A stretch of DNA of 61,017 nt, from assembly GCA_040902615.1 (NCBI GenBank), contig JBBDWZ010000286.1, positions 228 to 61,244 of the forward strand. Reading direction: 5' to 3'. This document shows positions 30,353-60,238 of this stretch, piece after piece; position 1 is the stretch's first letter; the number at the start of each line of letters is the position of its first letter. The notes under the pieces were generated by a model. The model was not told where the DNA came from and did no database searches. It saw only the letters and a program-made list of their open reading frames with translations. Both the position numbers and the translations under genes were made by a program. This DNA comes from Gemmatimonadota bacterium (GTDB lineage: Bacteria > Gemmatimonadota > Gemmatimonadetes > Longimicrobiales > RSA9).

Positions 30353-32827
30353 ATGAAATTCGGAGCGTCCTGGGTCGACTTCAAGCTCGGCGGGCGCATG
30401 CTCGTGAAATACCCGGGCCTGACCCTGATTGGCGGCATCACCCTCGCGGTGGCGATCGGAGTCGGGGCAGCATGGTTCGAGGTGACGCGGCAGATTGTGA
30501 ACCCGCGCATCCCGCTGGCTGACGGCGACCGCATTGTCACCATCGCCAACTGGGATGCTGCGGAATCAGAGATCGAGGCGCGCTCGCTCTACGACTTTCA
30601 GCTCTGGCGCGAGCAGCTAACGTCGATCAGGGAACTGGGCGCGTACCGCGCGTTCGAACGGAATCTGATTACGCCGGACGGCATTGCGCAGCCTACAGAA
30701 GTCGCGGAGATCAGCGCGGCTGCGTTTCCGTTGACTCGTGTGCCGCCCTTGCTGGGTCGCACACTCCAGGAGTCTGATGCCGTGCCGGGCGCTGCTGATG
30801 TCGTCGTGATCGGTTACGACATCTGGCAGAATCGTTTCAAGAGCGATCGCAGCATCATTGGTCAGACGGTCAGAGTCGGTCGCACGCCGGCGACCATCGT
30901 TGGGGTCATGCCGGAGGGGTTTCGTTTTCCGGTCATTCAGCAGCTCTGGCTGCCGTTGCGACTGTCCACGGCGGCGCCGCGGACGGGCGCCGCTGTCAGC
31001 GTCTTCGGCCGGCTCGCGGATGGCGCTTCGCTCGAGTCTGCACAAGCCGAGCTGACCACGATCGGTCAGCGCATTGCCGCCGTGAATGCGACGACGCATG
31101 CGCAGCTACGACCGTTCGTCTCGCGGTATGGCGGGCCCGGACCTATGTTCAACGGGGCGCCTGGTAGAAGCCAGTCGTTGCTGATCCGCATGACCAACAT
31201 CATCGCCTGGCTAATCCTCGCTGGTGCGGGCATGAACGTCGCCACGTTGATGTTTGCGCGCACTGCGACGCGTGAATCCGAGATCATCGTGCGCAATGCA
31301 CTCGGTGCTTCGCGCAAGCGCGTCATGATGCAGCTGCTGGTCGAGGCCTTTGTGCTGTGCACGGCTGCTGCGGTGGTTGGACTCCTCGGGGCCAGCTTCG
31401 CACTCGACTACGCCGTTCGCCTCTTCGCCGTGTCCGCGATAGAGCAGGTGCCGTTCTGGTGGCAATTCAGCATTGGGCCGGTCACTGTGCTTTACGCCCT
31501 TATCCTGGCGATCGGCGCTGCCGTTGTGGTCGGGTTGTTGCCTGCCATCAGAGCGACCGGCCCGCGCGTGCAGAACGCGCTCACGCAGATGTCGACCGGC
31601 GGCACGAGCATCAAATTCGGCGGCGTGTGGAGTGTCATGATCGTGCTGCAGGTCGCGTTTGCGGCGCTGTGCCTGCCCTTCGGTTTTGCCGCCGCGTTTG
31701 CCTCGGTGTTCGAGACCCGATGGTCTGATCGGTTCCCCACAAATGAGTACCTCACGTTTCGGCCGGAGCTGGATCCTGACGCACTCCCTACGACTGGTGT
31801 ATTCGATCCGGCCGCGTATCGCACGCAGCAGTTGACCGTATTTGCCGAGCTGAAGCGCCGACTCGAGAACGAGCCGTCGGTCACGGCCGTAACCTTTGCC
31901 AATGGCCTGCCGGGTACGTCATTTGGCCTGCGCCAGGTGGAAGTGCAACGCGGCAGCGAGCCGCCGGTCCTGGTTGATGCGAGCATCGAAGGCGACCGGG
32001 TCAGAATCGCGAATGTCGACAACGACTACTTCGACGCGTTCCAGTTCCCGTTGGTGGCCGGCCGCGCATTCAACACTTCCGATGTCGGCGCCGAGACCGC
32101 CGTCATCATCAACGAGACGCTGGCGCGCAACCTGGGCGGTAACCCGCTGGGCAAGCGGATCCGCTACGCTGAGGGTGGCCCCTATCGGCCGGTCAGTTCG
32201 TGGTACGAAGTCGTCGGTGTCGTGCGCGATATCCAGGATGCAACACCGGCCGACTTCATCTTCCAGCCCACGTCCGCCGCGGATGTGACTTCCCTCACTT
32301 TCGCGGTCCACACGCGTGGCGATGCCGCCGCAATTGCGCCGCGTCTGCGCGCCATCGCAACCGAAGTCGAGCCCGGACTCCGGCTTTACAACGTCGTTTC
32401 ACTGCACGAACTCCTGCGCCAGCGCGAACGGCCCGCGATCCAGCTGATGATCGTGACGGTCTCGCTCGTGCTCGTGGTGCTGGCACTCTCGGCCGCAGGC
32501 CTGTACTCGCTCATGTCCGTTGCAGTCACCCGTCGCACGCGCGAGATCGGCATCCGCCTCGCCATTGGCGCAAGCCCGCGCGCTGTACTCGGTGCGCTGT
32601 TCGCGCGCGCGGCCATCCAGGTAGGCATCGGCATCGTCCTGGCCAATGCGCTCCTGCCCGCGCTGATGACAGCTCTCGGCATCATGGAGTTGAAACTGAA
32701 CATAGTGCTGGGGGCGATGCTGATCGCATCGCTCGGCATGTTGCTGGTGGGACTGATCGCGTGCGGCGTTCCTGCACGGCGCGCGCTCCGAATCCAGGCA
32801 ACCGAGGCGATGCGATACGCTGGCTGA
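30353..32827 (+). CDS. ABC transporter permease, ADOP family (paralog 3)
   Basis: MKFGASWVDFKLGGRMLVKYPGLTLIGG... is collinear with paralogs 1 and 2 and ends in RALRIQATEAMRYAG. Confidence 0.9.
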   Translation: MKFGASWVDFKLGGRMLVKYPGLTLIGGITLAVAIGVGAAWFEVTRQIVNPRIPLADGDRIVTIANWDAAESEIEARSLYDFQLWREQLTSIRELGAYRAFERNLITPDGIAQPTEVAEISAAAFPLTRVPPLLGRTLQESDAVPGAADVVVIGYDIWQNRFKSDRSIIGQTVRVGRTPATIVGVMPEGFRFPVIQQLWLPLRLSTAAPRTGAAVSVFGRLADGASLESAQAELTTIGQRIAAVNATTHAQLRPFVSRYGGPGPMFNGAPGRSQSLLIRMTNIIAWLILAGAGMNVATLMFARTATRESEIIVRNALGASRKRVMMQLLVEAFVLCTAAAVVGLLGASFALDYAVRLFAVSAIEQVPFWWQFSIGPVTVLYALILAIGAAVVVGLLPAIRATGPRVQNALTQMSTGGTSIKFGGVWSVMIVLQVAFAALCLPFGFAAAFASVFETRWSDRFPTNEYLTFRPELDPDALPTTGVFDPAAYRTQQLTVFAELKRRLENEPSVTAVTFANGLPGTSFGLRQVEVQRGSEPPVLVDASIEGDRVRIANVDNDYFDAFQFPLVAGRAFNTSDVGAETAVIINETLARNLGGNPLGKRIRYAEGGPYRPVSSWYEVVGVVRDIQDATPADFIFQPTSAADVTSLTFAVHTRGDAAAIAPRLRAIATEVEPGLRLYNVVSLHELLRQRERPAIQLMIVTVSLVLVVLALSAAGLYSLMSVAVTRRTREIGIRLAIGASPRAVLGALFARAAIQVGIGIVLANALLPALMTALGIMELKLNIVLGAMLIASLGMLLVGLIACGVPARRALRIQATEAMRYAG

Positions 32828-32857
32828 TCGCGGTTGAGCTTCCGATCGTCGCTCCGA

Positions 32858-35551: not shown

Positions 35552-35901
35552 GACGGCGTGCCCTTCGTGGGCGTGGCAAGCAGGAGGTCCGTCATCGTCT
35601 CGGCGAACTGAAACCACTGTGCGGTCTGCTCCTCCAGACTGGCGCGGCCCGCAGCGGTGATGCGGTAGTACCGCGCGCGGCGGTTGCCCTCCGTGACACC
35701 CCACGTGGCCGACACCAGCCTTCGTTTTTCCAGGCGATACAGCGCCTGATACAGTGCCGCGTCCTCCAGCGTCAGCCGCCGGCCCGACTGCCGCTCGAGC
35801 CAGGTCGTCAACTCAAAGCCGTGCATCGGCTGCCAGGTCAATGCCTTGAGCACGAGCACGTCGAGCGTGCCCTTCAGAACGGGAACTGGTTCGGGAGCCA
35901 T
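35548..35901 (-). CDS. PadR-family transcriptional regulator
   Basis: GTLDVLVLKALTWQPMHGFELTTWLE...ALYRLEKRRLV...RRARYYRITAAGR is a typical PadR wHTH. Confidence 0.9.
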   Translation of the reverse strand: MAPEPVPVLKGTLDVLVLKALTWQPMHGFELTTWLERQSGRRLTLEDAALYQALYRLEKRRLVSATWGVTEGNRRARYYRITAAGRASLEEQTAQWFQFAETMTDLLLATPTKGTPS

Positions 35902-35914
35902 GATTTCGGTTGAG

Positions 35915-35929
35915 TCTAAGACACTTAGA
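35915..35929. promoter_or_regulatory. Candidate PadR operator palindrome
   Basis: TCTAAG-aca-CTTAGA lies 14-28 nt upstream of the PadR ATG, between it and the divergent PadR fragment. Confidence 0.3.
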
Positions 35930-35945
35930 TAAGCAGGACGGTTGC

Positions 35946-36384
35946 ATGGCGCGAATTCTTTACCCGGGCGGGCTCGAAATTATGGTGCTGCGCCTCCTGC
36001 ACGAGTCGCGGCACGGTTTAGAACTGGACCCCTTTGACCCCCAAACTGCGAGCTGTCCGTTGGAATGGAGTCGGCGCAGCGAATCGACGCAGAGGTGGTC
36101 GTCAGGAGAGTCGAGCTGGAATCCGACGTCCTGTAGCGTAATCCCGGTTACCCAGCGCAATACGCGCCACCCTGCAGGTCGGCATCGGCATCGTCCTCGC
36201 CAATGCGCTCCTGCCCGCTTTGATTACCGCGCTCGGTATCAGCGAGTTGAAAATGAGTATAGTGCTGCCGGCAATGCTGATCGCATCGGTCGGCATGTTG
36301 CTGGTGGGACTGATTGCGTGCGGTGTTCCCGCCCGCCGCGCGCTCCGCATCCAGGCAACCGAAGCGATAAAATGCGCGGGCTAA
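35946..36384 (+). pseudogene. Collapsed PadR-permease unit: a PadR N-terminal fragment and an ADOP permease C-terminal fragment with most of the operon deleted
   Basis: 35946-36030 encodes MARILYPGGLEIMVLRLLHESRHGLEL, PadR-like as in GTLDVLVLKAL..HGFEL. 36163-36384 encodes QVGIGIVLANALLPALITALGISELKMSIVLPAMLIASVGMLLVGLIACGVPARRALRIQATEAIKCAG*, nearly identical to the last ~70 codons of 30353-32827. The two pieces are in different frames. Confidence 0.65.
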
Positions 36385-36673
36385 ATGGCTGGAGGGTCAT
36401 AGGCCATTGGGCCTTTCGGTCTTCTGGACTGACACCGATCTTGTTCGGTAGCCGACCATCGGTAACCCAGCCGCGTCTACGTACATGACAATGCCATGAC
36501 GATGCCTCGCGCATAGCGCCATTGATCCAACAGTGGGACGAGCAGGACTGCCGTCCGACGGATATGACGAAGGGTTTTGCCGCTGGCATCGGGACGCCAG
36601 CACGCCCGAATGCGCGTTATCGATCGGAGCTCGAAATCCTGCTCGATAATCCACATTTTCGGGAGTAAGCCTG

Positions 36674-46285: not shown

Positions 46286-46783
46286 CTACCTGCAGCCGAA
46301 GCGATCGCCATGCCGGATTCCAGTGGAGCGCGCACTGCTCCAATACCGATATGGGCCGGTCACCACGCTATAGACGAACACGTTGTCGGCGTTACCATAG
46401 CCGCCAGTTCCCGTAGCACAGCGATACGAAACGTCGGTGGTGATCACTAGTCGCACCGTGTCGCCGGAGACAACCAGGTCCCCAATCTCGAAAACGTGTA
46501 CCGTATCGCCGGGCACCGGTGGACGGGCCCGCAGCATCGTCCGGAAATGGCTCCCGATCAGCGACCATGGAGCGCCCGTCTGCGGAAACTGGAAGCGCCA
46601 CGCCCGCGATGTCGTATCGGTCGCAACGCGCGCTGCGTAAGGCGCCAGCGATTTGATCGCGTACTCGATGATCGGACGCCAAATGGATGTATCGGGGAAA
46701 GCCGCCGGCGCGTTCTGTGCCTGCACGATGCCGGACGGCAGTGCGCAGCACGTCAGCACGATGGCCCACCTCATCGGCCTCAT
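46286..46783 (-). CDS. Small hypothetical secreted protein (165 aa)
   Basis: The ATG at 46783 overlaps the amidohydrolase TGA (ATGA at 46780-46783). Signal peptide MRPMRWAIVLTCCALPSGIVQAQ. The rest of the 271-aa ORF overlaps the upstream gene and is discounted. Confidence 0.6.
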   Translation of the reverse strand: MRPMRWAIVLTCCALPSGIVQAQNAPAAFPDTSIWRPIIEYAIKSLAPYAARVATDTTSRAWRFQFPQTGAPWSLIGSHFRTMLRARPPVPGDTVHVFEIGDLVVSGDTVRLVITTDVSYRCATGTGGYGNADNVFVYSVVTGPYRYWSSARSTGIRHGDRFGCR

Positions 46784-49700
46784 TGCCCGGGACCAGGACC
46801 TTTGTTGACCGGTAGCCAATCCATCCACCAGCGCCGCTCGAGCTTGCGCTTCTCCGGCCAGATCTCGTCCAGCGTTTCCGATTCGAGCAGGAAACCGTTG
46901 CGCATCACATAGCGCGGCTTCAGGATGCTGCGCAGGTCGGTGAGCGGGTTGGCATCGAACACAATGAGATCGGCCAGCTTGCCAATCTCGATCGATCCGA
47001 GATCCCGATCCACACCAATCGACTTCGCGCCGAAGATCGTGCCCACGCGCAAGACATCGTGGTTGGACATACCACCGGATCCGATCAGCAGGAGGTCCCA
47101 CGGCGTGCCGATGCCCTGCACTTCGTGATGCGCGCCGACGCCGACTGCGCCACCGTGCTTCACGATCTTCGCGGCCGCCTCGGAAACGCCCTTGAAGATG
47201 AAGTCATCTTCCGGCGCCCAGATGCCCTGGCGCGTGCGCCGATTCAGATCGGGCTGAAACGTGAAGCGCTTGAGGCGCGGCTCTTCATACGCGTTCTCTC
47301 GCGCGATCATGTAGTACTTGCCCTCCGGCCCACCGTAGGCGACCAGCATGGTCGGCGTGTACGTGATCTCGCTGGCGGCTGACAACAGCGCGAAGTCCTT
47401 GTACACGGGCCAGATCTCGTACGCGTGCTCGTGACCGGCGTAGCCATCCAGCATCTCCGAGATGCTCATCTTGAAGTCGCCGGCACCTTCAGTGGTCGGC
47501 GAGATGCGATTTTCGTAGGTTGCCATTACGATGAGCTGGCGCGTGCGGCGGTTGCCCGCGACGTACTGCTTGATGGTCTGCGTTTCGTAGAACTCGGCGT
47601 AGCGGCGCACGACTTCCCGAGCACGCGTAAGCGTGTTGATCTGCTCACCGCTGAAGATGCCCTGGCCGGTGCCCATGAAACGCGGGCCAAGCATATCGCC
47701 GGCGCGAATGCGGTCGCCGTACGTGATGATCGCGCTCGTGTTGGTCTGCGGATCGCGCATCGTCGTCACACCAAAAGCGAGGTTGGCGTGGAAGGCGGGC
47801 ACGGCGGTCTTGTGCACGTCGGGCGAGGGCCAGGTGTGGGCGTGCACGTCAACCCAGCCGGGCACGATGGTTTTGCCGGTCACGTCGATGGTCTGCGCGT
47901 TGGGCGGGATGACGACGCTGCCGTATGGGCCAACCGCCGTGATGCGATGGTTGGTCACCACGATGTCGCCGCGCTCGATGACCTCGGCGCCCTTCATGCT
48001 GATGATGCGCGCGCCCCTGAGCCCGACCACGCCGCTCGGCTTCTCCGCGGCAACCGCGATCCTGATGTCGTAACGCGCGGGCGAATACACCGGCCGATAC
48101 GGGAGCGTGTCGGCGCCGGGTACCGGCAGCGTGTCGCCGGCCAGCCGCTTCTGCCAGGCTCCGCGCAATGAATCGGCGCGTGCATTCATCGCAGCGGCGA
48201 TGTCGTATAGGAAGAAGGAACGGCCGAGCGAGAAGTACAGGTACCTGCCGTCGTTGCTCCAGCCGGGGAACTCGGCGCCGACTTCGATGGCAGTTTGTGT
48301 GGGAACCAGCGGCCGCTCGGCACGCGCATTCAGCGCAATAGCGCTACCGATTGTTGGTGCGGGGAACACCGAGATGCGCTTGGTCCCGGTATTCATCACG
48401 AAGCCGTACTTCCCATCCGGCGACAGCATCACAGCATCGCCGGTGTAGATCGTGCGCGGGTCCGAGCCATCCCAGCGCACCGATCGCAGTTCAGTCCCGC
48501 TCGTATACAGGATGCGATCGGGATCCGGCCCGAAATGCGCGAGCGGACCCGCCGGCATGGTCGACACGCCGCCAATCTCGATGATCTCCTTCAATGCGCC
48601 GCCATCCGCGTTCATCCAGGCCAGGCTCAACGGGCCTTCGTCCATGGCGCCGCTCAGGCGGTCGACGTAGTTGCGCCGCGGTACCCACGGCCCGGTTGCG
48701 ACCACGATGCGTTTGCCATCCGGCGAATACACGGGACGATAGTAGAACGCGGGCGCAGCGCTAAGCTTGCGCAGGCCCGAGCCATCGGCATTCACGACGT
48801 ACAGCTCGCCACCCGCTTCATCGGTCCAGGTCGCGAACACGACCTGCCTGCCATCCGGTGACCAGGCCGGCGAATGCTCGACCACGTTTTTCACAGTGGT
48901 GATTCGCTTCGGCGCACCTCCGGACAATTCCGTGATGTACAGCTTGTCGAGCGCGCTGAACGCAAGACGCCTGAGGTCGGGTGAGGGCGCGGGATCGCGG
49001 ATCTGTCGGGCAAAAAACGTGTCGGCGATCGGATACTGAAAGCGCGACAGCGGTCCCAGGTACTGCTCGACGTCGGCGCGGAAGGGAATCATGGTCGGCT
49101 TGCCGGTCGCTGCATCGATCTTCCAGATCTTACCGCCATAGGTCGTGAGGATGGCGGATGCGTCGGGCAGCCAGGCCGGGTTCGGCATGACACCTAGGCT
49201 GGCTGCCCGCATGCTGGCGTCGTGCTGCACGTCCATGCGCAGCACTTTCTCATCGCCACTCTCGATATCACGCAGCATGAGTGCAGTACGGCTGTCTTGG
49301 CGCGTGAAGTACGCGAGCTTCCGGCCGTCCGGGCTGACCGATACCTGCATCGCGCCGCCGGGATTGCTCACCAGGGTGTGCGCGCGACCTGTTGTGCGAT
49401 CGTAGACGAGGATCTGGCCCGAGCGGTTCGACGTGTACGCGCGTTTGCCGTCAGGCGAGAAAGAGGTGACGCCGTTGCCAAACGGCACGCGCACACCCTC
49501 ACCGCCGGAGAGGTGGTAGAGGTTCTGCGCGCCCAGGATGTACTCGCCGTCCGGCGTCCACACTGGGAACGACATCGATCCGCCCGGCAACTGCGAGAGC
49601 CGCACCGGATCGGAACCATCCGCGTTCGCGACCCATAACTGGTCACTGCCCGAACGATCCGAGATGAAGGCAATGCGTTTCCCCTCCGGCGAGAACGTCG

Positions 49701-50031
49701 GCTGCACATCCATCGAGTTGCCGCCCAGGATGCGCTTCGCTTTGCCGCCGGTGATGGGAACCGTGTAAACGTCACCGAGCAGATCGAACATCACGGTGCG
49801 TCCATCGGGAGAGACGGCCAGCGACATCCAGGTGCCCTCATCGACGGTGAAGCGCGCGATGCGGGTCGGCTTGAGCGGCAGCGTGTTGGTCGGGTCGCGC
49901 GGCAACGTGCCGGGAACCACCGTGTACTCACGCGCTCCGTTCTGCGCGTTGAGTGCAGGTGTGTACAGCGCGCTCCACAGCAGCACCCCGCAGATCGCGT
50001 GTTGAGCCAGGGTCACGGGTCTGGTATACAT
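46780..50031 (-). CDS. TolB-like beta-propeller / amidohydrolase-superfamily fusion protein (paralog A, metal-site motifs intact)
   Basis: GAGGAG lies 8 nt upstream of the ATG at 50031. The signal peptide is followed by repeated SPDG(R/K) WD40-like blades. The C-terminal amidohydrolase domain has VDVHAHTW, GYAGHEHAYE, GVGAHHEVQG and ADLIVFDANPL. Confidence 0.9.
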   Translation of the reverse strand: MYTRPVTLAQHAICGVLLWSALYTPALNAQNGAREYTVVPGTLPRDPTNTLPLKPTRIARFTVDEGTWMSLAVSPDGRTVMFDLLGDVYTVPITGGKAKRILGGNSMDVQPTFSPEGKRIAFISDRSGSDQLWVANADGSDPVRLSQLPGGSMSFPVWTPDGEYILGAQNLYHLSGGEGVRVPFGNGVTSFSPDGKRAYTSNRSGQILVYDRTTGRAHTLVSNPGGAMQVSVSPDGRKLAYFTRQDSRTALMLRDIESGDEKVLRMDVQHDASMRAASLGVMPNPAWLPDASAILTTYGGKIWKIDAATGKPTMIPFRADVEQYLGPLSRFQYPIADTFFARQIRDPAPSPDLRRLAFSALDKLYITELSGGAPKRITTVKNVVEHSPAWSPDGRQVVFATWTDEAGGELYVVNADGSGLRKLSAAPAFYYRPVYSPDGKRIVVATGPWVPRRNYVDRLSGAMDEGPLSLAWMNADGGALKEIIEIGGVSTMPAGPLAHFGPDPDRILYTSGTELRSVRWDGSDPRTIYTGDAVMLSPDGKYGFVMNTGTKRISVFPAPTIGSAIALNARAERPLVPTQTAIEVGAEFPGWSNDGRYLYFSLGRSFFLYDIAAAMNARADSLRGAWQKRLAGDTLPVPGADTLPYRPVYSPARYDIRIAVAAEKPSGVVGLRGARIISMKGAEVIERGDIVVTNHRITAVGPYGSVVIPPNAQTIDVTGKTIVPGWVDVHAHTWPSPDVHKTAVPAFHANLAFGVTTMRDPQTNTSAIITYGDRIRAGDMLGPRFMGTGQGIFSGEQINTLTRAREVVRRYAEFYETQTIKQYVAGNRRTRQLIVMATYENRISPTTEGAGDFKMSISEMLDGYAGHEHAYEIWPVYKDFALLSAASEITYTPTMLVAYGGPEGKYYMIARENAYEEPRLKRFTFQPDLNRRTRQGIWAPEDDFIFKGVSEAAAKIVKHGGAVGVGAHHEVQGIGTPWDLLLIGSGGMSNHDVLRVGTIFGAKSIGVDRDLGSIEIGKLADLIVFDANPLTDLRSILKPRYVMRNGFLLESETLDEIWPEKRKLERRWWMDWLPVNKGPGPGQ

Positions 50032-50224
50032 CAGTGGTTCTCCTCGCCGTTCAGGCGCGGCGGCCTCGAGCAATCAAGCTGCAGTGAGATGCAGCGTAGC
50101 CGGTCAATGCGCAAGACGACCCGCAGCCCTTCGCCGAGCAGCGTGCCTGATTCGGTCGGCACTATCGCAAGCCGGATCGCGCGTGACACTATATCGCGCG
50201 TCACACTATTCGGAGGCTCGAATC

Positions 50225-50725
50225 GTGATTCGAAGAGCGGAGCCGGCTGATCTGCCGGACGTCGTCGCCATCATTAACAACGCGGCGCAAGCCTATCGCG
50301 GCGTAATTCCCGACGATCGCTGGCATGAGCCCTACATGCCGCTGGCCGACCTGGAGCGCGAGATTGCGCAGGGCGTCGAGTTTTGGATCGCCGAAGACGA
50401 TGGACGCGTCGCCGGTGTCATCGGCATCCAGGACAAAGGCCCGGTTGCGCTGGTGCGCCACGCCTACGTCGCGCCCGGTACCCAGCGTAAGGGCCTCGGT
50501 ACCCGGCTGCTGCGCCACATCGAAAGCCTCAGCGACAAGCCCATCCTGATCGGCACCTGGGCCGCCGCATCGTGGGCCATTGACTTCTATCGGCGCAACG
50601 GCTTCACCGTTGTGCCGGACGACGAACGGAATCGCCTGCTGCGCAGCTTCTGGTCGATCCCCGAGCGGCAAATCGAAACCTCGGTCGTGCTGGCTGACAG
50701 ACGCTGGTTGGCAGCCGGCAGCTGA
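50225..50725 (+). CDS. GNAT-family N-acetyltransferase
   Basis: GTG at 50225 with GGAGG 8 nt upstream. VIRRAEPADLPDVVAIINNA...VAPGTQRKGLGTRLLRHI contains the acetyl-CoA-binding Q/RxxGxG motif. Confidence 0.8.
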   Translation: MIRRAEPADLPDVVAIINNAAQAYRGVIPDDRWHEPYMPLADLEREIAQGVEFWIAEDDGRVAGVIGIQDKGPVALVRHAYVAPGTQRKGLGTRLLRHIESLSDKPILIGTWAAASWAIDFYRRNGFTVVPDDERNRLLRSFWSIPERQIETSVVLADRRWLAAGS

Positions 50726-50858
50726 CCACCGCAATGCATGGTGGCGATGTCGCCCGTGTATTGATTGCGTTTGGCACGCATGACTCCCTGCTTGACCGGT
50801 CGGCAACGCCGTCCTACCTTATATGTCGAAGGTTGATGTAACGAAGCTTGAGGTAACT

Positions 50859-51194
50859 ATGGCAAGCGCGCGGTTTCCGATCCCGCAGGGCACACTCGAT
50901 ATGCTGGTGCTTCAGATTCTCTCGCTGGAGCCAGCCCACGGCTACGCCATCGCGCAGCGACTGCAACAGGTCTCACGCGAGGCAGTCCAGGTCAACCAGG
51001 GATCACTGTACCCGGCGTTGCACCGGCTCGAGCAGAAAGGCTGGCTCAAAGCGGAGTGGCGCCAGTCGGGTACGGGGCGCGAAGCCAAGATCTACTCGCT
51101 CACGCGCGCGGGCGCGAAGCAGCTCGCGGTCGAGAAGGAGAGCTGGGGCCGGCTCACGATGGCCGTGCAGCTGATCTTCAACGAGGGGAGCTAG
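50859..51194 (+). CDS. PadR-family transcriptional regulator
   Basis: GAGGT lies 5 nt upstream of the ATG at 50859. [25 protein letters not shown]...[14 protein letters not shown]...[13 protein letters not shown]. The alternative ATG at 50823 gives an atypically long N-terminus. Confidence 0.9.
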
Positions 51195-51196
51195 CG

Positions 51197-53911
51197 ATGC
51201 CAAGGATCTTCAACCTGTTGCCCTGGCGGCGCAGCCGGCTGGAATATGACCTCGATCGTGAGCTGCGCTACCACATCGACAGCCGGGTCGAGGAGCTGAA
51301 GCGTTCCGGCCTGAGTGAAGCGGCAGCACGGAGACAAACCGGACTCGAGTTCGGCAGTATCGACGATGTGCAGGAGGAAGTGCGCGATACCTGGACCTGG
51401 CATTGGCTCGACCATCTGAGTCGCGACTTCAGATATGCCGGTCGAACGCTGTTGCGCAATCCGGGCTTCGCGGCCGCTGCCGTGCTTTCACTCGCGCTAG
51501 GCATCGGTGCAAACGCAGCCATTTTTTCGCTGGTCGACCAGGTGCTTCTGCGGCCGCTTCCGGTGAACGAACCCGAACGACTCGTGCATCTGGACTGGAA
51601 AGGCTGGTCAGTCTCGTCGTCATGGGGCAGCGGCAATTTGATGTCGTATGCGCATTGCCGGGAGTTGAACGAGCGGGGACAGTTTTTCGACGGCGTTTTC
51701 TGTCGTCATCCCACGCAAGTGAACTTCTCGACCGGGCAACAGCACGAGCCGGTGCGTGCGGAGATCGTGTCAGGTTCGTTCTTTCCAGTACTCGGCGTGC
51801 AGCCGGAGCTGGGCCGACTGATTGGACCGTCGGATGATCGCCAGCCGGGCGCGCATCCGGTTGCCGTGCTCTCGTACGGATTCTGGCAGAACCATTTCGG
51901 CGGCGCGCGCGATGTGATCGGCCGCAAGCTGCTGATCAACAACCATCCGATGACGGTCATCGGCATTGCGCCGGCAAGCTTCAAGGGCGTCGATCCAATA
52001 GAAAATCCCGCTTTGTATCTGCCGGCGATGATGACGCAGCAGGCGGTGCCGGAATTGGGACCACGTGTGCTCGATCGGCGCACGGTGTGGATGCATGTGT
52101 TCGCTCGTCTCGACCCAGATATGACCGCCGTACAGGCGCGTGCCCGCATTCAGCCGTGGTTCAAGTCGATGCTCGATGCGGATATGCGGCTGGAGAGCTT
52201 CCCGAGTGTGACCGGCGAGCAGCGCGCCATTTATCTCGCTTCGAGCCTCGAGCTGTTGCCCGCCGCTCGTGGGTTTTCGATTCAGCGCGCCGCGCTCGAA
52301 CGGCCGCTTTGGGTACTGCTGGGTGGAACGTCGCTCCTGCTTCTGCTGGCGGGTCTGAACGTCGCCGGGCTTCTCCTCGCGCGGGGCGCGGCGCGCAGCC
52401 GGGAAATCACGACGCGCGCGGCGCTGGGGGCCACCCGGTCTCGAATCACCAGCCAGCTGCTGGTCGAGAGTGCTCTCATCGCGCTGGGTGGAGGACTGCT
52501 GGGTTTGATGGTCGCGCCGGCCGTGTCTCGAGCGCTGCTTTCCTTCCGTTCGCAGGTAACCGATCTGAGTTTCCAGTTCGATCGGCGTTTCCTGTTGTTC
52601 GCCGCGCTGGTGAGCCTGGTCACACTCGCAGTGTGCGGGCTGGCGCCGGCGCTGCAGGCTGGGCGCAGGTCGCTCATCTCCTCGTTCAACGATCGATCCG
52701 GTAGTACCACCGGCGGCGCTGTTCGAATTCGAAAGACGATCGTCGTGGCCCAGATGGCCTTCACCCTGATTCTGCTGATTGGAGCGGGTTTGTTTGTGCA
52801 GACGGTGGCGCGACTCTATGCCAAGGACCGTGGCTTTGACAGCGGTCGCCTGGTCATACTCTCAGTCAACGCGCCGGCGATCGGGTATTCGGATTCGGCG
52901 GCCGTGCAACTCATGCGCGACCTGCAGCGAAAGCTGCAAGACCTGCCGGGTATCGAGCGCGCCGCTGTGTCCAATTCGTCACTGCTCAGCGGCGGGAGTT
53001 TCCGTCGGAGCCTGACCATCCAATCCACGGAACGAATCGTCACGGAGCAGACCATCCCAGGTCTACGAGTAAGTCCCGGATTCTTTGCGACGCTGGGCAC
53101 CCGCCTGATTGCCGGCCGCGAGTTCAACCAGAGCGACGTTCCGCGCGCGGAAGAGTCTCGCTATCGCTCGGTCATCGTAAACCAGAGTTTTGCCCGGCGC
53201 TACTTTGGCACGCGCAATCCGGTCGGCCAGCGCATTGGCGTCGGCAATCAACCCGATACGCCGACCACGATCGAGATCGTCGGCGTGATCGAAGACATCA
53301 GCTTTCGCTTGATCCGCGAGGAGGAACCCGAACACGTGTTCTTTCCGTTTGGCCATCCATCAGCGCAGTCGGCGGACGGTTCGTTCGTGCTGCGCGTGCG
53401 AGGCAACCCGGAATCCGTGTTTCCGTCGATTCGCGCGGCAGTCGCGGAAATGAACCCGGCGCTGCCGGTCGGCTCACTGACAACGCTGGACGATCAGGTT
53501 GACCGTTCACTGGGAACGGAGCGGATGCTGGCCACGTTATCGAGCGGGTTCGGCGCGATCGCCCTGCTGCTCTCCGTAGTTGGTCTGTACGGTGTCGTCT
53601 CGTTTGTGGTCATGCAGCGAAGGCAGGAAATCGGTGTCCGCGTCGCACTCGGCGCCACCCGCTCCGCCGCGGTGTGGCTCATTACTCGGGATGCGTTGAT
53701 CATGATCATCGCCGGAATCGGCATTGCCCTCCCCGCTGCCTGGGCGCTTCGGCGGCTGGTCGAGACGCAGCTCTTCGGCGTTGGCGCCTTCGACGGACCG
53801 ACGATCGCCGCCGCGATTTGTCTACTGGCGTTGGTTGCGCTCGGCGCTGCGCTGCGTCCCGCGTGGCGCGCCGCTTCGGTGAGCCCGACCGAGGCGCTGC
53901 GATTTGATTAG
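51197..53911 (+). CDS. ABC transporter permease, ADOP family (PadR-linked subtype)
   Basis: ATG at 51197, 2 nt after the PadR stop. N-terminal helix [30 protein letters not shown]..., two FtsX modules, ending in [12 protein letters not shown]. Confidence 0.9.
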
Positions 53912-53929
53912 CGGTTCTCCTCGGCCACT
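53910..53929. repeat. Left copy of a 20-bp direct repeat (1 mismatch) duplicating the 3' end of the amidohydrolase gene
   Basis: agcggttctcctcggCcact at 53910-53929 versus agcggttctcctcggTcact at 56929-56948. The reverse complement of 53908-53928 reads VAEENR-TAA, compared with VTEENR-TGA at the real gene end. Its TAA overlaps the permease TAG (TTAG). Confidence 0.9.
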
Positions 53930-54142
53930 CGCGCAGAAAGACACTGGCGCGAGGCCAAAACATTTGACGGTCGGGCTGAGAGGAACGGAAACTGCAGCGC
54001 CTTAAAACGCCTTTATCTTTTACCGATCAAGAGATCGTTTGAGCCCTAGCGGGATGATGCTATCGCAGTGGATGGGGCAGACCGGTGAAATGCCCAGGAT
54101 TGGGAATGGCAACATCGGCAACGTCAGAGAAATGCTATTGAG

Positions 54143-55390
54143 GTGGGGATGGGTCTACGATCGCTCGCTGCATCCTGCTGCCTGATTTGCGGTGGTGCCT
54201 TGGTCGCATGTTCACTACACGACCCGCCGGCCGTCAACCGTGCCTCGGAAAGCTGCGCGGATGTGACGTGGAGCAACTGGCAGCACCTCGCGACCTTTCG
54301 CTCCGCGACGTTGTACGATCTCAGCGCCGCCGCCTTCAATGGCAAATTGGTTGTTGTTGCCACTAAGACGGCGGGCCGAGGACTGACCCGAGGCGATTTC
54401 GGTTTGGCTCTCGCTGACTCCAGGAATGACATCTCCGACGTTCCACAGGGTAATTTCCTCTTCCTCGCACCCCGAATCGCATTCGATCGGCAAGGCGCCC
54501 TGCATCTCTTTTGGGGGGAAACCGCGCCTGCCACGCAAATTGCCGGAGCCGTTGGGCTTCTGCCGGTGAGTACGATTTGGCACTCGGTCCACCAGCCCAG
54601 CGGCAATTGGTCACAGCCTCAACAAGTCTATGCCTCTAAGCGTCATCTGTATTGGAATGCAGATTACGCTGAGGTCGTGACTATTGATGGCGTACCTCAT
54701 GCCATTATTGCCGATTTCGATTTTCCATTTGCACTGGTGCATATCACCATGCAGGGAACGAAGGCAACGGTTGAACGCGTGCCGACGTACGTCGCCGCCT
54801 ACACGACGATAACAGAAACAACTAAATCTCCAGGCATTCTAGTTGGCTATATGGCAGCCGATACGGTCAGGCCTGCTGTCGGGAACAGCGTGTTCGCACG
54901 GCGGCGGACAGTTTCCGGGTGGTCTGACGCAACACGCATTCAGCGATCTACGGACGGAGGTGCAACCAGCGTGCACATCCGAAAAGCAGGGAGCGGCGTT
55001 GTGCACGCGATCTGGGCGCAAAGCCATTCTGATGGACTGGCTCCCGATGGTTGGCGAACGGCGTACTCTCGGGACGACGGGCAGACCTGGAGTGCGCCGC
55101 ACACCACCGCAAGAGCAGAGGACGGCCTGTCGAGCTTCCGAGTGCAGTCCTACCCCTCGTCCTGCCTCCGCGTGTTCTACCTGGCCGGCAAATCGATGAT
55201 GCGCCCTTTAATGCATCATTGGATGTTAGCGGATTCTAGCTGGCAAAGCGGGGCAACGCTGCCACTCGCCAATGGTTTGACCATCGTGACTGCTGCGGAT
55301 GATAGTGCGCTCTTTGTCGTCGAGCTTGGTCCCGGACCGCAGGATCCTACAGCGGGCGTGCTCTCGTTCGTCGTCGGTCGTCAACCTTAA
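54143..55390 (+). CDS. Hypothetical lipoprotein with BNR/Asp-box (sialidase-like propeller) motifs
   Basis: Lipobox GALVAC. Asp-box-like motifs QRSTDGGATS and YSRDDGQTWS. GTG at 54143 or ATG at 54149. Confidence 0.65.
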   Translation: MGMGLRSLAASCCLICGGALVACSLHDPPAVNRASESCADVTWSNWQHLATFRSATLYDLSAAAFNGKLVVVATKTAGRGLTRGDFGLALADSRNDISDVPQGNFLFLAPRIAFDRQGALHLFWGETAPATQIAGAVGLLPVSTIWHSVHQPSGNWSQPQQVYASKRHLYWNADYAEVVTIDGVPHAIIADFDFPFALVHITMQGTKATVERVPTYVAAYTTITETTKSPGILVGYMAADTVRPAVGNSVFARRRTVSGWSDATRIQRSTDGGATSVHIRKAGSGVVHAIWAQSHSDGLAPDGWRTAYSRDDGQTWSAPHTTARAEDGLSSFRVQSYPSSCLRVFYLAGKSMMRPLMHHWMLADSSWQSGATLPLANGLTIVTAADDSALFVVELGPGPQDPTAGVLSFVVGRQP

Positions 55391-55405
55391 GATGGGAGAC
55401 ACAGC

Positions 55406-56251
55406 ATGCGACAGACTCTCCTTCGCCTAAGTCTCGTAATTGCAATGGCAGGCGCGTGTGCTCGAGACTCGATTGTCTCGCCGGAAGCGAAACTTCCCGC
55501 GATACCGCCTTCGCCGATTTCAAATGCCAAAACATATGAGAGCACCCTTCGTTCGGAACTCGTGGCAGCGCAAAACCGGGGAGATGAGGATCAAGCTTGG
55601 CACATTCGCGATAAACTCAAGGAACTGATAGAAATGGCCGCGGGCATCAAGATTAATGATGACGCATGCACGTACATCGACATAAAACAGACCACCGTAT
55701 CGACCAGTTCCACCGGTGGCTCCGTATTGGCGCGTACACATGCGATTGGTGCACTCTCGAACTGTCCCGTGCTCGACCCGCAGCAACCCCATCGCCTCGA
55801 AGTCCTTTCAACCACCTCCACCAATATCGGAGGTCAATCCGGGCCGACCATGCCTTACGGCCCGTGTTGGACCACTGACTGTTTTGTCAGCTCACCGATT
55901 ACTTCGGAATGCGAGCAAAATCCAGGTGCGCCGGTCACCGCAAACACCTCGCACTCAGCGCGATTTTTCCTGACGAACACGGAAACCGTGGCTAACGGAT
56001 CCGAGGTAAGTGCTGTTTCGAGTGGTTCCGGGGACTGCGCCCCGCCGGCCTGCCCGCCAGGCGCGACTCCGGTGGGCAGCGGAAACTGTCAGGAGACTGA
56101 GGCGCCACCATATCCTCAATCCAGCGGAAGTGGATCCGGGCCGCCTCCCTATCAGGAGGACTGCACGTGGTGGGCGCACCTTACGTTGCGATACAACTAT
56201 GACGACGGAAATTGGTATGTAATCGCCGTTTATTATACATGCGACGAATAG
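55406..56251 (+). CDS. Hypothetical Cys-rich lipoprotein
   Basis: GGGAG lies upstream. Lipobox AMAGAC. Eleven further Cys residues, Ser/Thr/Gly/Pro-rich segments, C-terminal WYVIAVYYTCDE. No family recognised. Confidence 0.6.
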   Translation: MRQTLLRLSLVIAMAGACARDSIVSPEAKLPAIPPSPISNAKTYESTLRSELVAAQNRGDEDQAWHIRDKLKELIEMAAGIKINDDACTYIDIKQTTVSTSSTGGSVLARTHAIGALSNCPVLDPQQPHRLEVLSTTSTNIGGQSGPTMPYGPCWTTDCFVSSPITSECEQNPGAPVTANTSHSARFFLTNTETVANGSEVSAVSSGSGDCAPPACPPGATPVGSGNCQETEAPPYPQSSGSGSGPPPYQEDCTWWAHLTLRYNYDDGNWYVIAVYYTCDE

Positions 56252-56288
56252 TCCTCATACTGCCCAAAGGCAACAGATTGGAGGCTCT

Positions 56289-56699
56289 ATGTGCTCAATG
56301 TTATTAGTTACGCTGCTTGCGATCCAGATTCAGGGACAGACGGATCGCGTGATGATCGCACTCGCAAATGAGCTTGAGAAGCCGAACGCGGTAGCTGTCG
56401 TAATCAATCATCTCGATTCACATTCCACGGACGTTATTGTGCTTCGAGTTGATGCGACGCCGGAGCATTTAGCAGCGGCACTCGCAAGTTACCGAAAGCT
56501 CAGAAGCGAGCAGCGGGACGGACGCAGTATTATCCACGCGATCTCGGGAGTTCCCTTTCAGACACCGGGGCAGCGCCGCACTGCGGAGATGGTACTGACG
56601 CGTTTGCGCGGTACACCCCTGCGCGATGTTGTTGGTGTAGGACGAGTTCAGGCCGCTGAGGTCCCATTTGTAAACGGAACCATCGTGTACGTTGAGTAA
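56289..56699 (+). CDS. Small hypothetical protein (136 aa) with a hydrophobic N-terminus
   Basis: GGAGG lies upstream of the ATG. N-terminus MCSMLLVTLLAIQIQG. No family recognised. Confidence 0.5.
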   Translation: MCSMLLVTLLAIQIQGQTDRVMIALANELEKPNAVAVVINHLDSHSTDVIVLRVDATPEHLAAALASYRKLRSEQRDGRSIIHAISGVPFQTPGQRRTAEMVLTRLRGTPLRDVVGVGRVQAAEVPFVNGTIVYVE

Positions 56700-56926
56700 G
56701 CGGTATATTCGCGCTTGTAGCAAACCGACATGAGCAATGGGCAGCAGTCCTTCACCGTGGGGCTGCTGCCTCGCCAAAAGCGGTCGTTAGCCAGGCGGTG
56801 TTCTGTCGTGCACGGTGGCCGATGGCGGTTTTGATGGCGTTAACTTTGGTTGCGGATTCGTGGAGATAGCTTCAGAAAGTGTGGAAAACGAGAAAAAGGG
56901 GGTGACAACTTCAGGTCTGGTGCACA

Positions 56927-59900
56927 TCAGCGGTTCTCCTCGGTCACTATATCAGCCAGCCACCAGAGGTTCTCCAGCTTTTTACGAACCGGCGCGATCT
57001 GATCGAGCGTCAGCGCATCGTACAGGCGGCCGTTCTTCATCACGTAGCGCACCGTGTTGGTACTGCGGATGTCGATGAGCGGGTTGGCATCGAGCACCTG
57101 CAGGTCGGCGAACTTGCCGCTTTCAATCGAGCCGAGCTGTGCGCCCAGGCCAATCGATTCCGCGCCAAAGATCGTCGCGGCACGCAGGATGTCGTGGTTC
57201 CGCATGCCCTTCGAGAGCAGCCACATCTCCCAGTGGAAAGCCAGGCCCTGCACACGACCGTTCGATCCGAGCGCAACCTTGCCGCCCTGGGCAAGAACTC
57301 GTGCTGCGCCCAGCGCGATCAAATCGAACGGGTACTCCACCTGATCCGCCCACTGGAAACGCCCGCGTGAGAGCCGATCGATGTCGCGGTGCTGCATGAA
57401 GCGCTGCACCTTCGGATCGGTGTGCGGCGACTGGGTCGCCAGCACGTGCTCCATCCCCTGTCGTGATCCCACCCGGCCGAGCAGCATCGGCGTGTAGGTG
57501 ATACCCGACTCGGCAATCAGCTTCGCAACGTCCTGGTGCAGCGGCATGATCTCGTACGAGCCCAGATGTCCGGCATAGCCATCGAGAATCGCACTCAGGC
57601 TTTTCCGGAAATCCGGCGATCCGTTGGTGACCGCGGTGAGGCCGAGCTCTTTGCTCACTGTGAGGAATCGCTGGCGATCGGCGCGCGTCGCGGTGAGATC
57701 TCCGCGCACGCTGCCGCTGCGATAGCTGTTTGCATACGCAGCCAGGAAGTTGCGTGCATCGGGATTCGTGCGCAGGATCGCCGCAGAGTCCAGCGCGGTC
57801 GGCCCGGTCGCGAATACGCGCGGCCCGAGCAGCTCGCCCATTGCAACGCGATCCGCGTAGGTGAAAATGTCGGTGGTCCGCGATTCGGGATCGCGCGTGG
57901 TGGTCACACCGAACGCGAGGTTGGCCAGGTATTGCGGAATGATCGTGCGATGCACCTGGCTGGGCGCCGCCATCTGCGCGTGCACATCGACGTAGCCGGG
58001 CAGAATGGTCTTCCCCTTCACATCGATCGTGCGTGCCCCACGTGGAATGTCGACCTGACCGCGCGCACCCACGGCAGTGATGCGATTGCCGGTGACGACG
58101 ATGTCGCCGTCTTCAATGATCTCGAGGCCCTTCATGGTCACGATGCGAGCGCCTCGCAGCACCGTGACGCCGGACGGCTTGTCGGCGGCCGCAGTGATGG
58201 TGATCAGGTGACGTATGGCATCGTAGACCGGTGTCCACGGTCCGGCGGGATCCGCTTGCGGCCGTCTGGTTGTATCGGCAGCTGGGCGGCCGGCGGGATC
58301 GGACGCGGGCGCGGACGCGGATCGGGTCAATGCAGCGGCCAGCGAATCCGCGACCATCTTGTCGCCGGTTGCAACATCGTAGACGAATAGGGTTGTACCG
58401 TGACTCCAGACTGCTTTGCTGCCATCGCGCGAGAAAGAAGGGAAGTCGCCGCCAGCGCGCGTGAGCCGGCGCACGGGAACGACTGGCGTCTGCGCGGTGA
58501 CGTCAACGGTTACCGAGTCCGCTACCTGCGGCCGCTCGAACAAAAAGATGTGACGGCGTGGCCCCGCGCGGCCCAGCACGTGCACGCCGTCGGGCGAGAG
58601 CAGAGTCTGCGGTGTTGCGCGAGCGAGCACGACCTTGCGATCGGAACCATCCCACGCAACCGACACGAGTGCAGCGCCATCGTGATAGAACACGCGCATC
58701 GTGTCGGACGTGAAATGCGGATAACCGCCGAGCGGCAGTGCACCGACATCGGCAACCATTGTGATCGGACGTTGAGTGCCGCCTTCTGCAGGCATCCAGC
58801 GCAGCTCGAAGTTGAGCTCGGTGCCCGCGCCGGCCGCGGTGCGTGGCTGCACGAGAGATTCGTTTGCGATTGCGGTGAATGCCTGACGCGGCGCGCGCGC
58901 AAACACGAGACGTGAACCATCGGGCGTGTAGTTGAGGCGCGCGTACATGGCTGGCGCGCGCGTGAGATTGCGCGGCGTGCCACCGGCAGCACTCACCTGC
59001 ATGATGTCGCCGCCAATGCCATCGACCCACGTGGCGTACGTGATCGATTGCCCATCAGGTGTCCAGGTCGGTGCGGTCTCGATCGGGTTGGTTGCGCGCG
59101 TGAGGCGCCGCGGCGTGCCACCGGGAATATCCATCAGCCAGACTTTGCCGAGCGCCGTGAAGGCGACGCGTTTGCCATCGGGTGAAAGCGCGGGTTCGCG
59201 AATTTCACGGGCAACCACGGTATCGCCGATCTGGTGAGAGCCGCGCACCAGCGCGCCCAGCGGCTGCTCGACATCTGCAGTGAACGGGATCTCGGTCTTC
59301 CGGCCCGAGGGAATTTCGATGCGCCACAAGTTGCCACCGAACGATGTGACGATCGCACTCTCATCGGGCAGCCAGGCGGACGAGGGCAGCGGTCCGATCC
59401 CCGGTGGTGGTGGTGGCGGTGGCGGTGTCGCGCCGGGCGCCAGCGGTCCCTGGAAGGGCGGCGGCGGGACGTACGCTTCCGGCTGCGTCTCCATCGCTAA
59501 CCACTTCTCGCTGCCGGTATCCAGATCACGCACGACCAGCGCGGACTTGGCCTCGAATCGAGTGAAGTACACCAGGCGCTTGCCGTCCCTGCTCACCATC
59601 GGCCGCAGTACGCCGCCGGGAAGATTCGTTCGGCTCGAGATCGTGCCTCGCTGGCGATCGTAGCGCGCGGCTTGCGTGCCGCTCTGAAACCAGATGTAGC
59701 GCCCGTCTGCGGTGAGGCTCGCACCGGTGCCGACGCCGGTGAGCGGAATGCCTGCTCCGCCGCGCAGGTCGACTAGCCGGTTGCCGGTCACGATCTGCCG
59801 TCCATCGGGCGTCCACACCGGATACACGCCGCCATTCGTGAGCAAACGCACGCGTCGGCCATCCGCATCGGCGAGCCAGGTGGCATCGGAGCCGTTGCGG

Positions 59901-60238
59901 TCGGAGATGAACACGAGCGATCTGCCGTCAGGCGAGAAGCGCGGCTGCAAGTCGACCGAGTTCCCGCCGATGATGCGCGTCGCTTTGCCGCCGGTCATGG
60001 GGACTGTGTAGATGTCGCCCAGGAGATCGAAGGCGATGGTGGACCCATCCGGCGAGACATCGACCGACATCCAGGTGCCCTGATCGGTCGTGAACCGCGC
60101 CGTGCGGCTGGTCACGAGCGGGAGCGTGTTGGTGGCGTCGCGTCGAGCGGCGGCGGCGGAGTCAGTCCGGTTCTGCGCGGCGGCTGGGACAGCTGCAATG
60201 AGCAGAGCGGACGCGAGCAGAAGGGGGAGAGTACGCAT
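56927..60238 (-). CDS. TolB-like beta-propeller / amidohydrolase-superfamily fusion protein (paralog B, His motifs substituted)
   Basis: Signal peptide MRTLPLLLASALLIAAVPAAAQ. Collinear with 46780-50031, but with VDVHAQMA, GYAGHLGSYE and ALGSNGRVQG at the positions of the His-containing motifs. It contains a run of 8 Pro codons (59402-59425). Confidence 0.9.
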   Translation of the reverse strand: MRTLPLLLASALLIAAVPAAAQNRTDSAAAARRDATNTLPLVTSRTARFTTDQGTWMSVDVSPDGSTIAFDLLGDIYTVPMTGGKATRIIGGNSVDLQPRFSPDGRSLVFISDRNGSDATWLADADGRRVRLLTNGGVYPVWTPDGRQIVTGNRLVDLRGGAGIPLTGVGTGASLTADGRYIWFQSGTQAARYDRQRGTISSRTNLPGGVLRPMVSRDGKRLVYFTRFEAKSALVVRDLDTGSEKWLAMETQPEAYVPPPPFQGPLAPGATPPPPPPPPGIGPLPSSAWLPDESAIVTSFGGNLWRIEIPSGRKTEIPFTADVEQPLGALVRGSHQIGDTVVAREIREPALSPDGKRVAFTALGKVWLMDIPGGTPRRLTRATNPIETAPTWTPDGQSITYATWVDGIGGDIMQVSAAGGTPRNLTRAPAMYARLNYTPDGSRLVFARAPRQAFTAIANESLVQPRTAAGAGTELNFELRWMPAEGGTQRPITMVADVGALPLGGYPHFTSDTMRVFYHDGAALVSVAWDGSDRKVVLARATPQTLLSPDGVHVLGRAGPRRHIFLFERPQVADSVTVDVTAQTPVVPVRRLTRAGGDFPSFSRDGSKAVWSHGTTLFVYDVATGDKMVADSLAAALTRSASAPASDPAGRPAADTTRRPQADPAGPWTPVYDAIRHLITITAAADKPSGVTVLRGARIVTMKGLEIIEDGDIVVTGNRITAVGARGQVDIPRGARTIDVKGKTILPGYVDVHAQMAAPSQVHRTIIPQYLANLAFGVTTTRDPESRTTDIFTYADRVAMGELLGPRVFATGPTALDSAAILRTNPDARNFLAAYANSYRSGSVRGDLTATRADRQRFLTVSKELGLTAVTNGSPDFRKSLSAILDGYAGHLGSYEIMPLHQDVAKLIAESGITYTPMLLGRVGSRQGMEHVLATQSPHTDPKVQRFMQHRDIDRLSRGRFQWADQVEYPFDLIALGAARVLAQGGKVALGSNGRVQGLAFHWEMWLLSKGMRNHDILRAATIFGAESIGLGAQLGSIESGKFADLQVLDANPLIDIRSTNTVRYVMKNGRLYDALTLDQIAPVRKKLENLWWLADIVTEENR
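56929..56948. repeat. Right copy of the 20-bp direct repeat (the genuine 3' end of the amidohydrolase gene)
   Basis: See 53910-53929. Confidence 0.9.

Follow-up and report, generated by a model that had tools for sequence, protein, structure and literature searches.

Three copies of a stop/start junction bracket two inserts between a conserved pair of amidohydrolase genes in a Gemmatimonadota bacterium

Introduction

Insertion sequences (IS elements) and transposons duplicate 2-14 bp of their target and casposons about 14-15 bp, and genes gained through recombination in the homology on either side would come without junction duplications. Small islands without a recombinase are known as well. 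The microcin H47 island of Escherichia coli is recombinase-less and is flanked by imperfect direct repeats of a few tens of nucleotides (nt), and its excision and reintegration have been shown experimentally to be RecA-independent (PMC5426353). Recombinase-less elements flanked by attachment (att) sites, and their tandem accretion, have also been described (PMC5704250, PMC7563491). Here we analyse a 61,017-nt stretch of a Gemmatimonadota contig (Longimicrobiales; JBBDWZ010000286.1), hereafter the window, in which two unrelated gene blocks, E1 and E2, separate two amidohydrolase genes, amidoh1 and amidoh2, that overlap each other in relatives. An earlier note, made from the sequence of this stretch, had singled out the second block as a 3-kb insertion bracketed by a 20-bp direct repeat.

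We propose that this 3-kb block makes up the outer half of a 6.9-kb insertion that is specific to this lineage, arose in two steps and split the coupled genes amidoh1 and amidoh2 at their stop/start overlap. The two-part structure and the insertion history are well supported, and the molecular mechanism is what we infer from them; for the account as a whole, mechanism included, we see the chances of its being right or wrong as about equal.

Like the H47 island, the inserts are small, have no recombinase gene and are flanked by imperfect direct repeats, on which host functions or a RecA-independent process presumably acted; here, however, the repeats number three, derive from a gene-overlap junction and enclose two cargo blocks that are unrelated to each other, and the case is known from its sequence alone. 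The locus also resembles tandem accretion and cis-mobilizable elements (CIMEs; reviewed in PMC5704250), in that three direct repeats delimit two integrase-less inserts and the 3' end of a gene is kept intact. It differs from these in having no integrase or partner element nearby and no symmetric core, in that all 17 orthologous sites in relatives are empty, and in its cargo, which is of chromosomal type or orphan. As in transposable elements, the inserted DNA is flanked by direct target duplications, but these are 18 and about 37 nt long, unequal, and accompanied by neither terminal inverted repeats nor a transposase or Cas1 gene. Recombinase-poor hotspots between core genes likewise gather accessory genes of differing composition without mobility genes, whereas the present site lies inside a 4-nt overlap, is occupied in one of 18 genomes and carries explicit junction duplications. 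The locus is thus a small recombinase-less, direct-repeat-flanked islet, a known kind and not a new kind of mobile element. Its site inside a 4-nt gene overlap, the triple junction copy and the long, unequal duplications are unusual, and they are seen in a single case.

Results

The 20-bp repeat, AGCGGTTCTCCTCGG(C/T)CACT at 53910-53929 and 56929-56948, is as previously described, with 19 of 20 positions identical and a spacing of 3019 bp. When it is extended with the upstream ATT/ATC, 22 of 24 positions match, and no pair like the 20-mer arose in 100 dinucleotide shuffles. A third, longer copy at 50016-50046 had been missed. Its sequence GGTCTGGTATACATCAGTGGTTCTCCTCG at 50018-50046 matches 56914-56942 at 26 of 29 positions (90%) across a spacing of 6896 bp, where none would be expected by chance. 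We refer to the three copies as A, B and C; read along the minus strand, the order is amidoh1 - C - (ORF3, ORF2, ORF1) - B - (ADOP, PadR, GNAT) - A - amidoh2, where ORF stands for open reading frame.

Copy C (56912-56948, minus strand) reads agtgaccgaggagaaccgcTGATGtgcaccagacctg and combines the functional 3' end and stop codon of amidoh1 (VTEENR-TGA, rightly recognized in the earlier note as the true end of the gene) with a 13-nt pseudo-start of amidoh2. Right behind the amidoh1 stop, the minus strand reads ...cgaggagaaccgcTGATGtgcaccagacctg..., and the 13 nt that follow TGATG (tgcaccagacctg) agree with the real amidoh2 start (tataccagacccg) at 10 of 13 positions, a match whose probability at a given position we estimate by hand as about 5e-4 (per-base match about 0.3). 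Alignments of the two closest relatives, L001 and L035, run beyond the amidoh1 stop within this copy, to 56920 and 56918, respectively. Copy B (53907-53929, minus strand) reads agtggccgaggagaaccgcTAAt and is a relic of the last six codons and stop of amidoh1; it translates as VAEENR-TAA on the minus strand, and its TAA overlaps the TAG of the permease gene (TTAG at 53908-53911), again as noted before. Its position is the exact compositional boundary between E1 and E2. Copy A (50016-50046, minus strand) reads cgaggagaaccaCTGATGtataccagacccg and is 90% identical to 56914-56942 over 29 nt; in it, the functional amidoh2 start is preceded by remnants of the final 17 nt of amidoh1, which include the Shine-Dalgarno GAGGAG and a pseudo-stop. 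The minus strand 5' of amidoh2 shows ...cgaggagaaccaCTGATGtataccagaccc..., and the blastn alignment of L035 passes through this copy. Copy C therefore holds the amidoh1 end with a dead amidoh2 start, copy A a dead amidoh1 end with the live amidoh2 start, and copy B a dead amidoh1 end alone. All three trace back to a single ancestral site, the junction (…GAGGAGAACCGC-TGATG…) at which the stop and start codons of tandem PD40-amidohydrolase genes overlap.

Single pairs of 20-24 nt at 88% identity or more are met in real related DNA at a rate of roughly one per 25 kb. The repeats are considered non-random because of their triple occurrence and their exact siting at gene ends and at the compositional boundary, not because of the 20-mer by itself. 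Nor is the 20-mer a repeat of generic type: across 726 kb of related loci, its 15-nt core is present a single time, at the orthologous junction of L035. The same core had 79 matches in IMG/VR, none of which reached beyond the core, and these were set aside as chance matches.

The upstream gene of the pair, amidoh1 (56927-60238, minus strand), encodes 1103 amino acids with a PD40 propeller and an amidohydrolase domain (Pfam); the downstream gene, amidoh2 (46780-50031, minus strand), encodes a PD40/TolB-propeller amidohydrolase (Pfam PD40 and Amidohydro_1), and its real ATG lies at 50031-50029. Genome and metagenome collections were scanned with amidoh1, and 17 orthologous loci were obtained, all from Gemmatimonadota and with amino-acid identities of 64-89%. 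The closest relative, L001, is a Longimicrobiales metagenome-assembled genome (JBOHRF010000046); its amidoh1 is about 89-89.6% identical to that of the window, and that of L035 83-84%. In all 17 loci, an amidoh2 orthologue (68-90% identical) directly follows amidoh1, and the amidoh1 stop overlaps the ATG as ...gaggag.a.cgcT(G/A)ATG..., although in four of them (L003 and L039-L041) the detectable amidoh2 similarity starts about 100 nt further downstream. The two genes are a conserved, translationally coupled pair. The ancestral junction, ...GTGACC-GAGGAG-AACCGC-TGATG-TAT..., comprises the last codons and stop of the first gene together with the ribosome-binding site and ATG of the second. GAGGAG codes for Glu-Glu near the end of amidoh1 and lies 8 nt ahead of the amidoh2 ATG, which makes it the obvious candidate for the ribosome-binding site of amidoh2. 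GAGGAG sits inside amidoh1, and an insertion in the overlap must duplicate it if both genes are to stay intact.

No GNAT, PadR, ADOP or ORF1-3 gene was found between or around the pair in any of the 17 loci within the fetched flanks. The empty site that the earlier note had suggested seeking in relatives therefore exists in 17 of 17 loci, but it is the amidoh1/amidoh2 overlap T(G/A)ATG and not a permease/amidohydrolase junction. The view that the 3-kb block is an insertion holds, as the block is absent from every orthologous locus, compositionally foreign and bracketed by duplicated gene-end sequence. Its removal does not, however, restore an ancestral convergent junction, as had been claimed, since the GNAT-PadR-permease block to its left was itself inserted at the same place. 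In a neighbour-joining tree rooted with amidoh2, amidoh1 of the window is sister to L001, with L035 next, and is nested among the remaining relatives. Given this position and the absence of the insert from the relatives, the occupied state (50047-56911) is derived; a single gain explains this pattern far more parsimoniously than would precise loss on several occasions. The duplication can be viewed directly in L035, where the nucleotide alignments to amidoh1 and amidoh2 overlap by 31 nt (7212-7242 of that locus). No comparable insertion with junction duplication was found in the 726 kb of relatives' loci.

The amidoh1-amidoh2 pair is the sole part conserved between the window and the relatives, a two-gene unit in otherwise non-syntenic surroundings: nucleotide homology to L001 (about 85%) ends within about 30 nt of the outer ends of the pair, and the flanking genes showed no tblastx similarity in nine relatives. 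Two distant relatives carry repeat elements at their loci (L045, 11268-12186 and 14209-14276; L048, 4774-6938); one of them has an array, made up of repeats about 50 nt long, immediately 3' of the amidohydrolase gene, and the other has several copies of a GC-rich REP-like element of about 52 nt 5' of the pair.

The outer insert, E2 (53930-56911, plus strand), is the block of the earlier note and holds three genes for near-orphan secreted proteins. The comparison of composition that the note had proposed bears out its foreign character: the G+C content (GC) of E2 is 0.567 against 0.63-0.65 in the flanks, and GC at third codon positions (GC3) is 0.56-0.61 against 0.72-0.81 in 17 other genes of the window. 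Lower GC3 is otherwise seen in an extracytoplasmic function (ECF) sigma gene (0.65), one alpha/beta-hydrolase gene (0.68) and the IetA/IetS genes (0.65-0.66). As read from the translations, all three E2 proteins have signal-peptide or lipobox-like N-termini. ORF1 (54143-55390, plus strand) encodes an Asp-box beta-propeller lipoprotein with the Asp-box SRDDGQTWS. Three homologues of it were found among 5.8 billion proteins, and Pfam gave a single sub-threshold BNR/Asp-box match (E 0.0013; 18.9 bits against a cut-off of 27). Its AlphaFold model is all-beta and of low confidence (predicted local distance difference test score 48), and the folds that match it best belong to propeller enzymes, among them sialidases and ulvan lyase; we take this as a hint only. 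ORF2 (55406-56251, plus strand) encodes a near-orphan lipoprotein with no match in a word-indexed search and two weak matches among 1.8 billion representatives, and ORF3 (56289-56699, plus strand) encodes a small secreted protein. None of the three matched a family in NCBIfam, PADLOC or PHROGs, and none had a Pfam match above threshold. E2 DNA had no match in plasmid and phage records, nor ORF1 in viral contigs. Two contigs with ORF1 homologues have about 57% GC and lack the amidohydrolase context. With no E2 relatives in plasmid, phage or viral records and few ORF1 homologues elsewhere, no population of such cassettes is apparent, which favours the two-step account. The closest ORF1 homologue (52-56% identity) lies in two frames on a 1.9-kb contig (L030, 379-1534) and is either a frameshifted pseudogene or the product of a sequencing error.

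The inner insert, E1 (50047-53909, plus strand), carries GNAT, PadR and ADOP permease genes (identified with Pfam and NCBIfam), which are absent from the loci of all relatives, and its GC3 of 0.73-0.82 is host-like. The GNAT acetyltransferase ORF spans 50084-50725 (plus strand), and the gene probably starts at GTG 50225; PadR (50823-51194, plus strand) and the ADOP duplicated permease (51194-53911, plus strand; 905 amino acids; TIGR03434, E 1.8e-249) follow. The 180-nt leader of E1 contains a 17-nt sequence repeated twice in tandem and in perfect register, ATCGCGCGT(G/C)ACACTAT x2 (50176-50209, plus strand), just 5' of GGAGG and the likely GNAT start. This repeat looks operator-like and may serve the PadR protein encoded downstream. 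The permease ends in ...EALRFD, the natural C-terminus of the family (seven homologues finish in ...ALR(F/L)(D/E)), so that the right border of E1 falls at the stop codon. The closest homologue that the permease search found in the databases was 74% identical. Two possible origins of E1 were rejected. PadR-ADOP as a mobile module with its own flanking repeats was set aside because three homologous loci (66-74%) had three different contexts and repeats at noise level, and a recent copy of a paralogue in the window because the permease is 26-31% identical to the other four ADOP genes.

The contents of the junction copies bear on the order of events. Copy C holds an amidoh2 pseudo-start; E2 therefore met a junction to which amidoh2 was still attached, and came first. 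In the first step, E2 would have entered the native junction with duplication of about 37 nt (AGTGRCCGAGGAGAACCGCTGATGTRYACCAGACC), leaving the amidoh1 end and a dead amidoh2 start in copy C, and the ribosome-binding site and live start in the distal copy. In the second step, E1 would have entered this distal copy with duplication of about 18 nt (CGAGGAGAACCRCTRAT), leaving relic B beside the permease stop and copy A before amidoh2. The opposite order with simple target duplication is ruled out by the amidoh2 pseudo-start in copy C; E1 could have come first only if E2 carried its own junction copy, as in the att-type or inter-strain models discussed below.

We also searched the locus for signatures of mobility. 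In agreement with the earlier note, no integrase, transposase or terminal inverted repeats were detected inside the 3-kb block. Integrase, transposase and recombinase domains were absent from every sizeable ORF of the 61-kb window, and no terminal inverted repeats were present at the ends of E1 or E2. No tRNA or tmRNA was found in the window, Rfam gave no credible match, and promoter- and terminator-like sites occurred at background frequency. The ends of E1 and E2 have no sequence motif in common, and the reconstructed junction contains no recombinase half-sites and no dyad symmetry.

When the locus is set against the defining features of known element classes, it shares with att-flanked islands and CIMEs the flanking direct repeats that overlap the target gene end (copies A, B and C), and it lacks their recombinase in or next to the element (in the 61-kb window), their inverted half-sites and repeated use of an attB site (none of 17 loci). 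It is not an IS element or transposon, having no terminal inverted repeats, no transposase and duplications of about 37 and 18 nt without a fixed length. Nor is it an integron cassette, as its repeats duplicate a coding junction in direct orientation and are not palindromic, each insert has three genes and there is no intI; nor a Xer-dependent element (IMEX or dif module), as there is no 28-bp dif-like site with two 11-bp inverted arms and no dyad symmetry. Two features of the H47-type island, imperfect flanking direct repeats and an island without recombinase, are present.

The earlier note had also suggested that the junction is a hotspot of the same kind as that hosting a cassette at 23-27 kb. 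This cassette (23559-27180, plus strand), described there by its AAA and S8 domains, is an IetA/IetS anti-phage defence pair (PADLOC IetA E 1.6e-143, IetS E 6.4e-290), and its GC3 below the host range of 0.72-0.81 indicates that it was probably acquired horizontally too. The idea of a common hotspot finds no support: no bracketing repeat comparable to that at the amidohydrolase junction was found around the cassette, and it is flanked by decayed gene fragments and not by intact genes. It lies between an ADOP relic and an amidohydrolase relic, both decayed 3' fragments, in convergent orientation. The ADOP relic (23114-23265, plus strand; about 150 nt) is a permease C-terminus that agrees with the end of the ADOP gene at 15309-17780 at up to 27 of 29 positions. 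Relics of an amidoh2-type C-terminus (…RKLERRW.M.W.P…*), of about 50 nt each, lie at 7175-7228 and 27206-27256 (minus strand). These intergenic gene-end relics may be either deletion scars or old junction duplications.

Besides that of E1, the window contains four ADOP-family permease genes (regions 12821-17780, 30308-35704 and 35910-36488), of which two are in tandem (67-87% nucleotide identity in blocks), a further copy shows 67-80% identity in blocks and the fourth is convergent. At 36163-36382 there is also a fragment of an ADOP C-terminus, which shares 85% identity with the terminal part of the gene at 30308-32827. On this evidence, the ADOP family of the window is actively duplicating and decaying. 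A tandem repeat of three 39-nt units (CCTGTAGGGGATATCGAGATGYTGGAGATAGGGAGATAC; 95-100% identical) lies between two ORFs at 9835-9950 (plus strand).

Discussion

The mechanism that we favour for the two-step insertion is a recombinase-independent, illegitimate insertion that would duplicate a variable length of target, either by fill-in of a staggered break and joining or by a replicative template switch that returned upstream of its exit point. Both flanking genes survive because the junction was duplicated. However, amidoh1 was already safe in copy C when E1 arrived, so that selection explains the first duplication and not the second; duplication therefore appears to be intrinsic to the insertion. 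The unequal lengths of the duplications, about 37 and 18 nt, argue against an enzyme with a fixed cutting geometry.

Several points weigh against this account. There is a single occupied locus, from which the mechanism is not demonstrable, and we know of no standard bacterial transposition or end-joining event that duplicates as much as 18-37 nt of its target. The right end of E1 lies within 5 nt or less of the natural stop codon of the permease, which is unlikely for a random breakpoint (about 1-3% by our estimate). The base differences among the copies, such as GGCC in copy B, could be accounted for just as well if an att-like copy of another allele had come in. Finally, the recombinase search covered the 61-kb window, and a recombinase acting in trans could lie elsewhere in the genome.

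The last two points lead to the alternative of att-type integration with tandem accretion, which we consider unlikely. Here, E1 and E2 would be islands without an integrase (cis-mobilizable or decayed) for which the amidoh1/amidoh2 junction served as attB; each would have brought an attP copy, and the tyrosine or serine recombinase would be encoded elsewhere or since lost. The three direct repeats have the layout attL-attI-attR, overlapping and restoring a gene 3' end, and the imperfect copies fit hybrid att sites, with native bases on the gene side and variant bases on the element side. Precedents for both att-flanked elements without their own recombinase and tandem accretion are given in the literature cited above (PMC5704250, PMC7563491). 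Against this, a recombinase is found nowhere in the 61 kb, none of the 17 orthologous junctions is occupied, and shuffled sequences exceed the best inverted-repeat score of the site, which has no dyad symmetry, in 99.8% of cases; the att-like mechanism put forward in the earlier note is supported neither by the structure of the site nor by its occupancy in relatives. Moreover, E1 and E2 have no common end motifs, and their shared segments differ in length (about 37 and 18 nt). An attP source would also require earlier residence at such a junction, with which the foreign composition of E2 and the unrelated contexts of its homologues disagree.

Short-homology recombination between strains would account for the allelic differences in another way, and we regard it as equally improbable. 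States with E1 only and with E2 only would have arisen separately and later been combined or moved, anchored by the long amidohydrolase homology on one side and by a junction copy of 20-35 nt on the other, either through homology-facilitated illegitimate recombination or through RecA-independent recombination at short repeats as in the microcin H47 island. Copy B has GGCC, which is the L035 allele, whereas copy C has GACC, in keeping with a foreign allelic origin, and an E1-only state would yield exactly the overlapping-stop permease/amidohydrolase junction that the earlier note had reconstructed. Recombinase-less islands that have imperfect direct repeats and move RecA-independently are documented (PMC5426353). 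This scheme, however, still needs two primary insertions with duplication at one junction, so that it adds steps and removes none, and no locus with E1 only or E2 only was found among the 17 relatives.

Returning to the two-step insertion, the second duplication without selective need and the end of E1 at a stop codon hint at a mechanism with its own rules and not at random breakage. The junction duplications might then be the footprint of a so far unrecognised, trans-acting insertion activity that places recombinase-less blocks in stop/start overlaps and intrinsically duplicates 18-37 nt, a speculation to which we give little credence.

An ancestral arrangement, with the genes deleted in relatives through the repeats, or an artefact (a chance repeat or a chimeric assembly) is already largely refuted and highly improbable: direct repeats can mediate a precise deletion, GC-rich DNA not infrequently contains isolated near-matches of 20 nt and the window apparently comes from a metagenome-type contig of 61,244 nt, but the nesting among insert-free relatives would need several independent precise losses, the GC3 of E2 is foreign, the three copies lie at functionally meaningful positions where none is expected by chance, and the longest exact run common to the copies is 15 nt or less, which, going by assembler k-mer sizes, would be too short for a chimeric join.

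The locus offers a clean, datable example of accessory genes entering a translationally coupled operon with neither gene destroyed. The cargo comprises an orphan permease, presumably under PadR control, together with an acetyltransferase, as well as three secreted orphans, one of which is predicted to contain a sialidase-like propeller; both flanking genes survive because a few dozen nucleotides containing a stop codon, a ribosome-binding site and a start codon were duplicated. It also shows that a tidy junction restored by a direct repeat can mislead when the empty site of relatives is not at hand, since the neighbouring "flank" was itself inserted here. One locus is insufficient for a general conclusion; if long target duplications at gene overlaps recur in Gemmatimonadota, they would point to an undescribed route of insertion.

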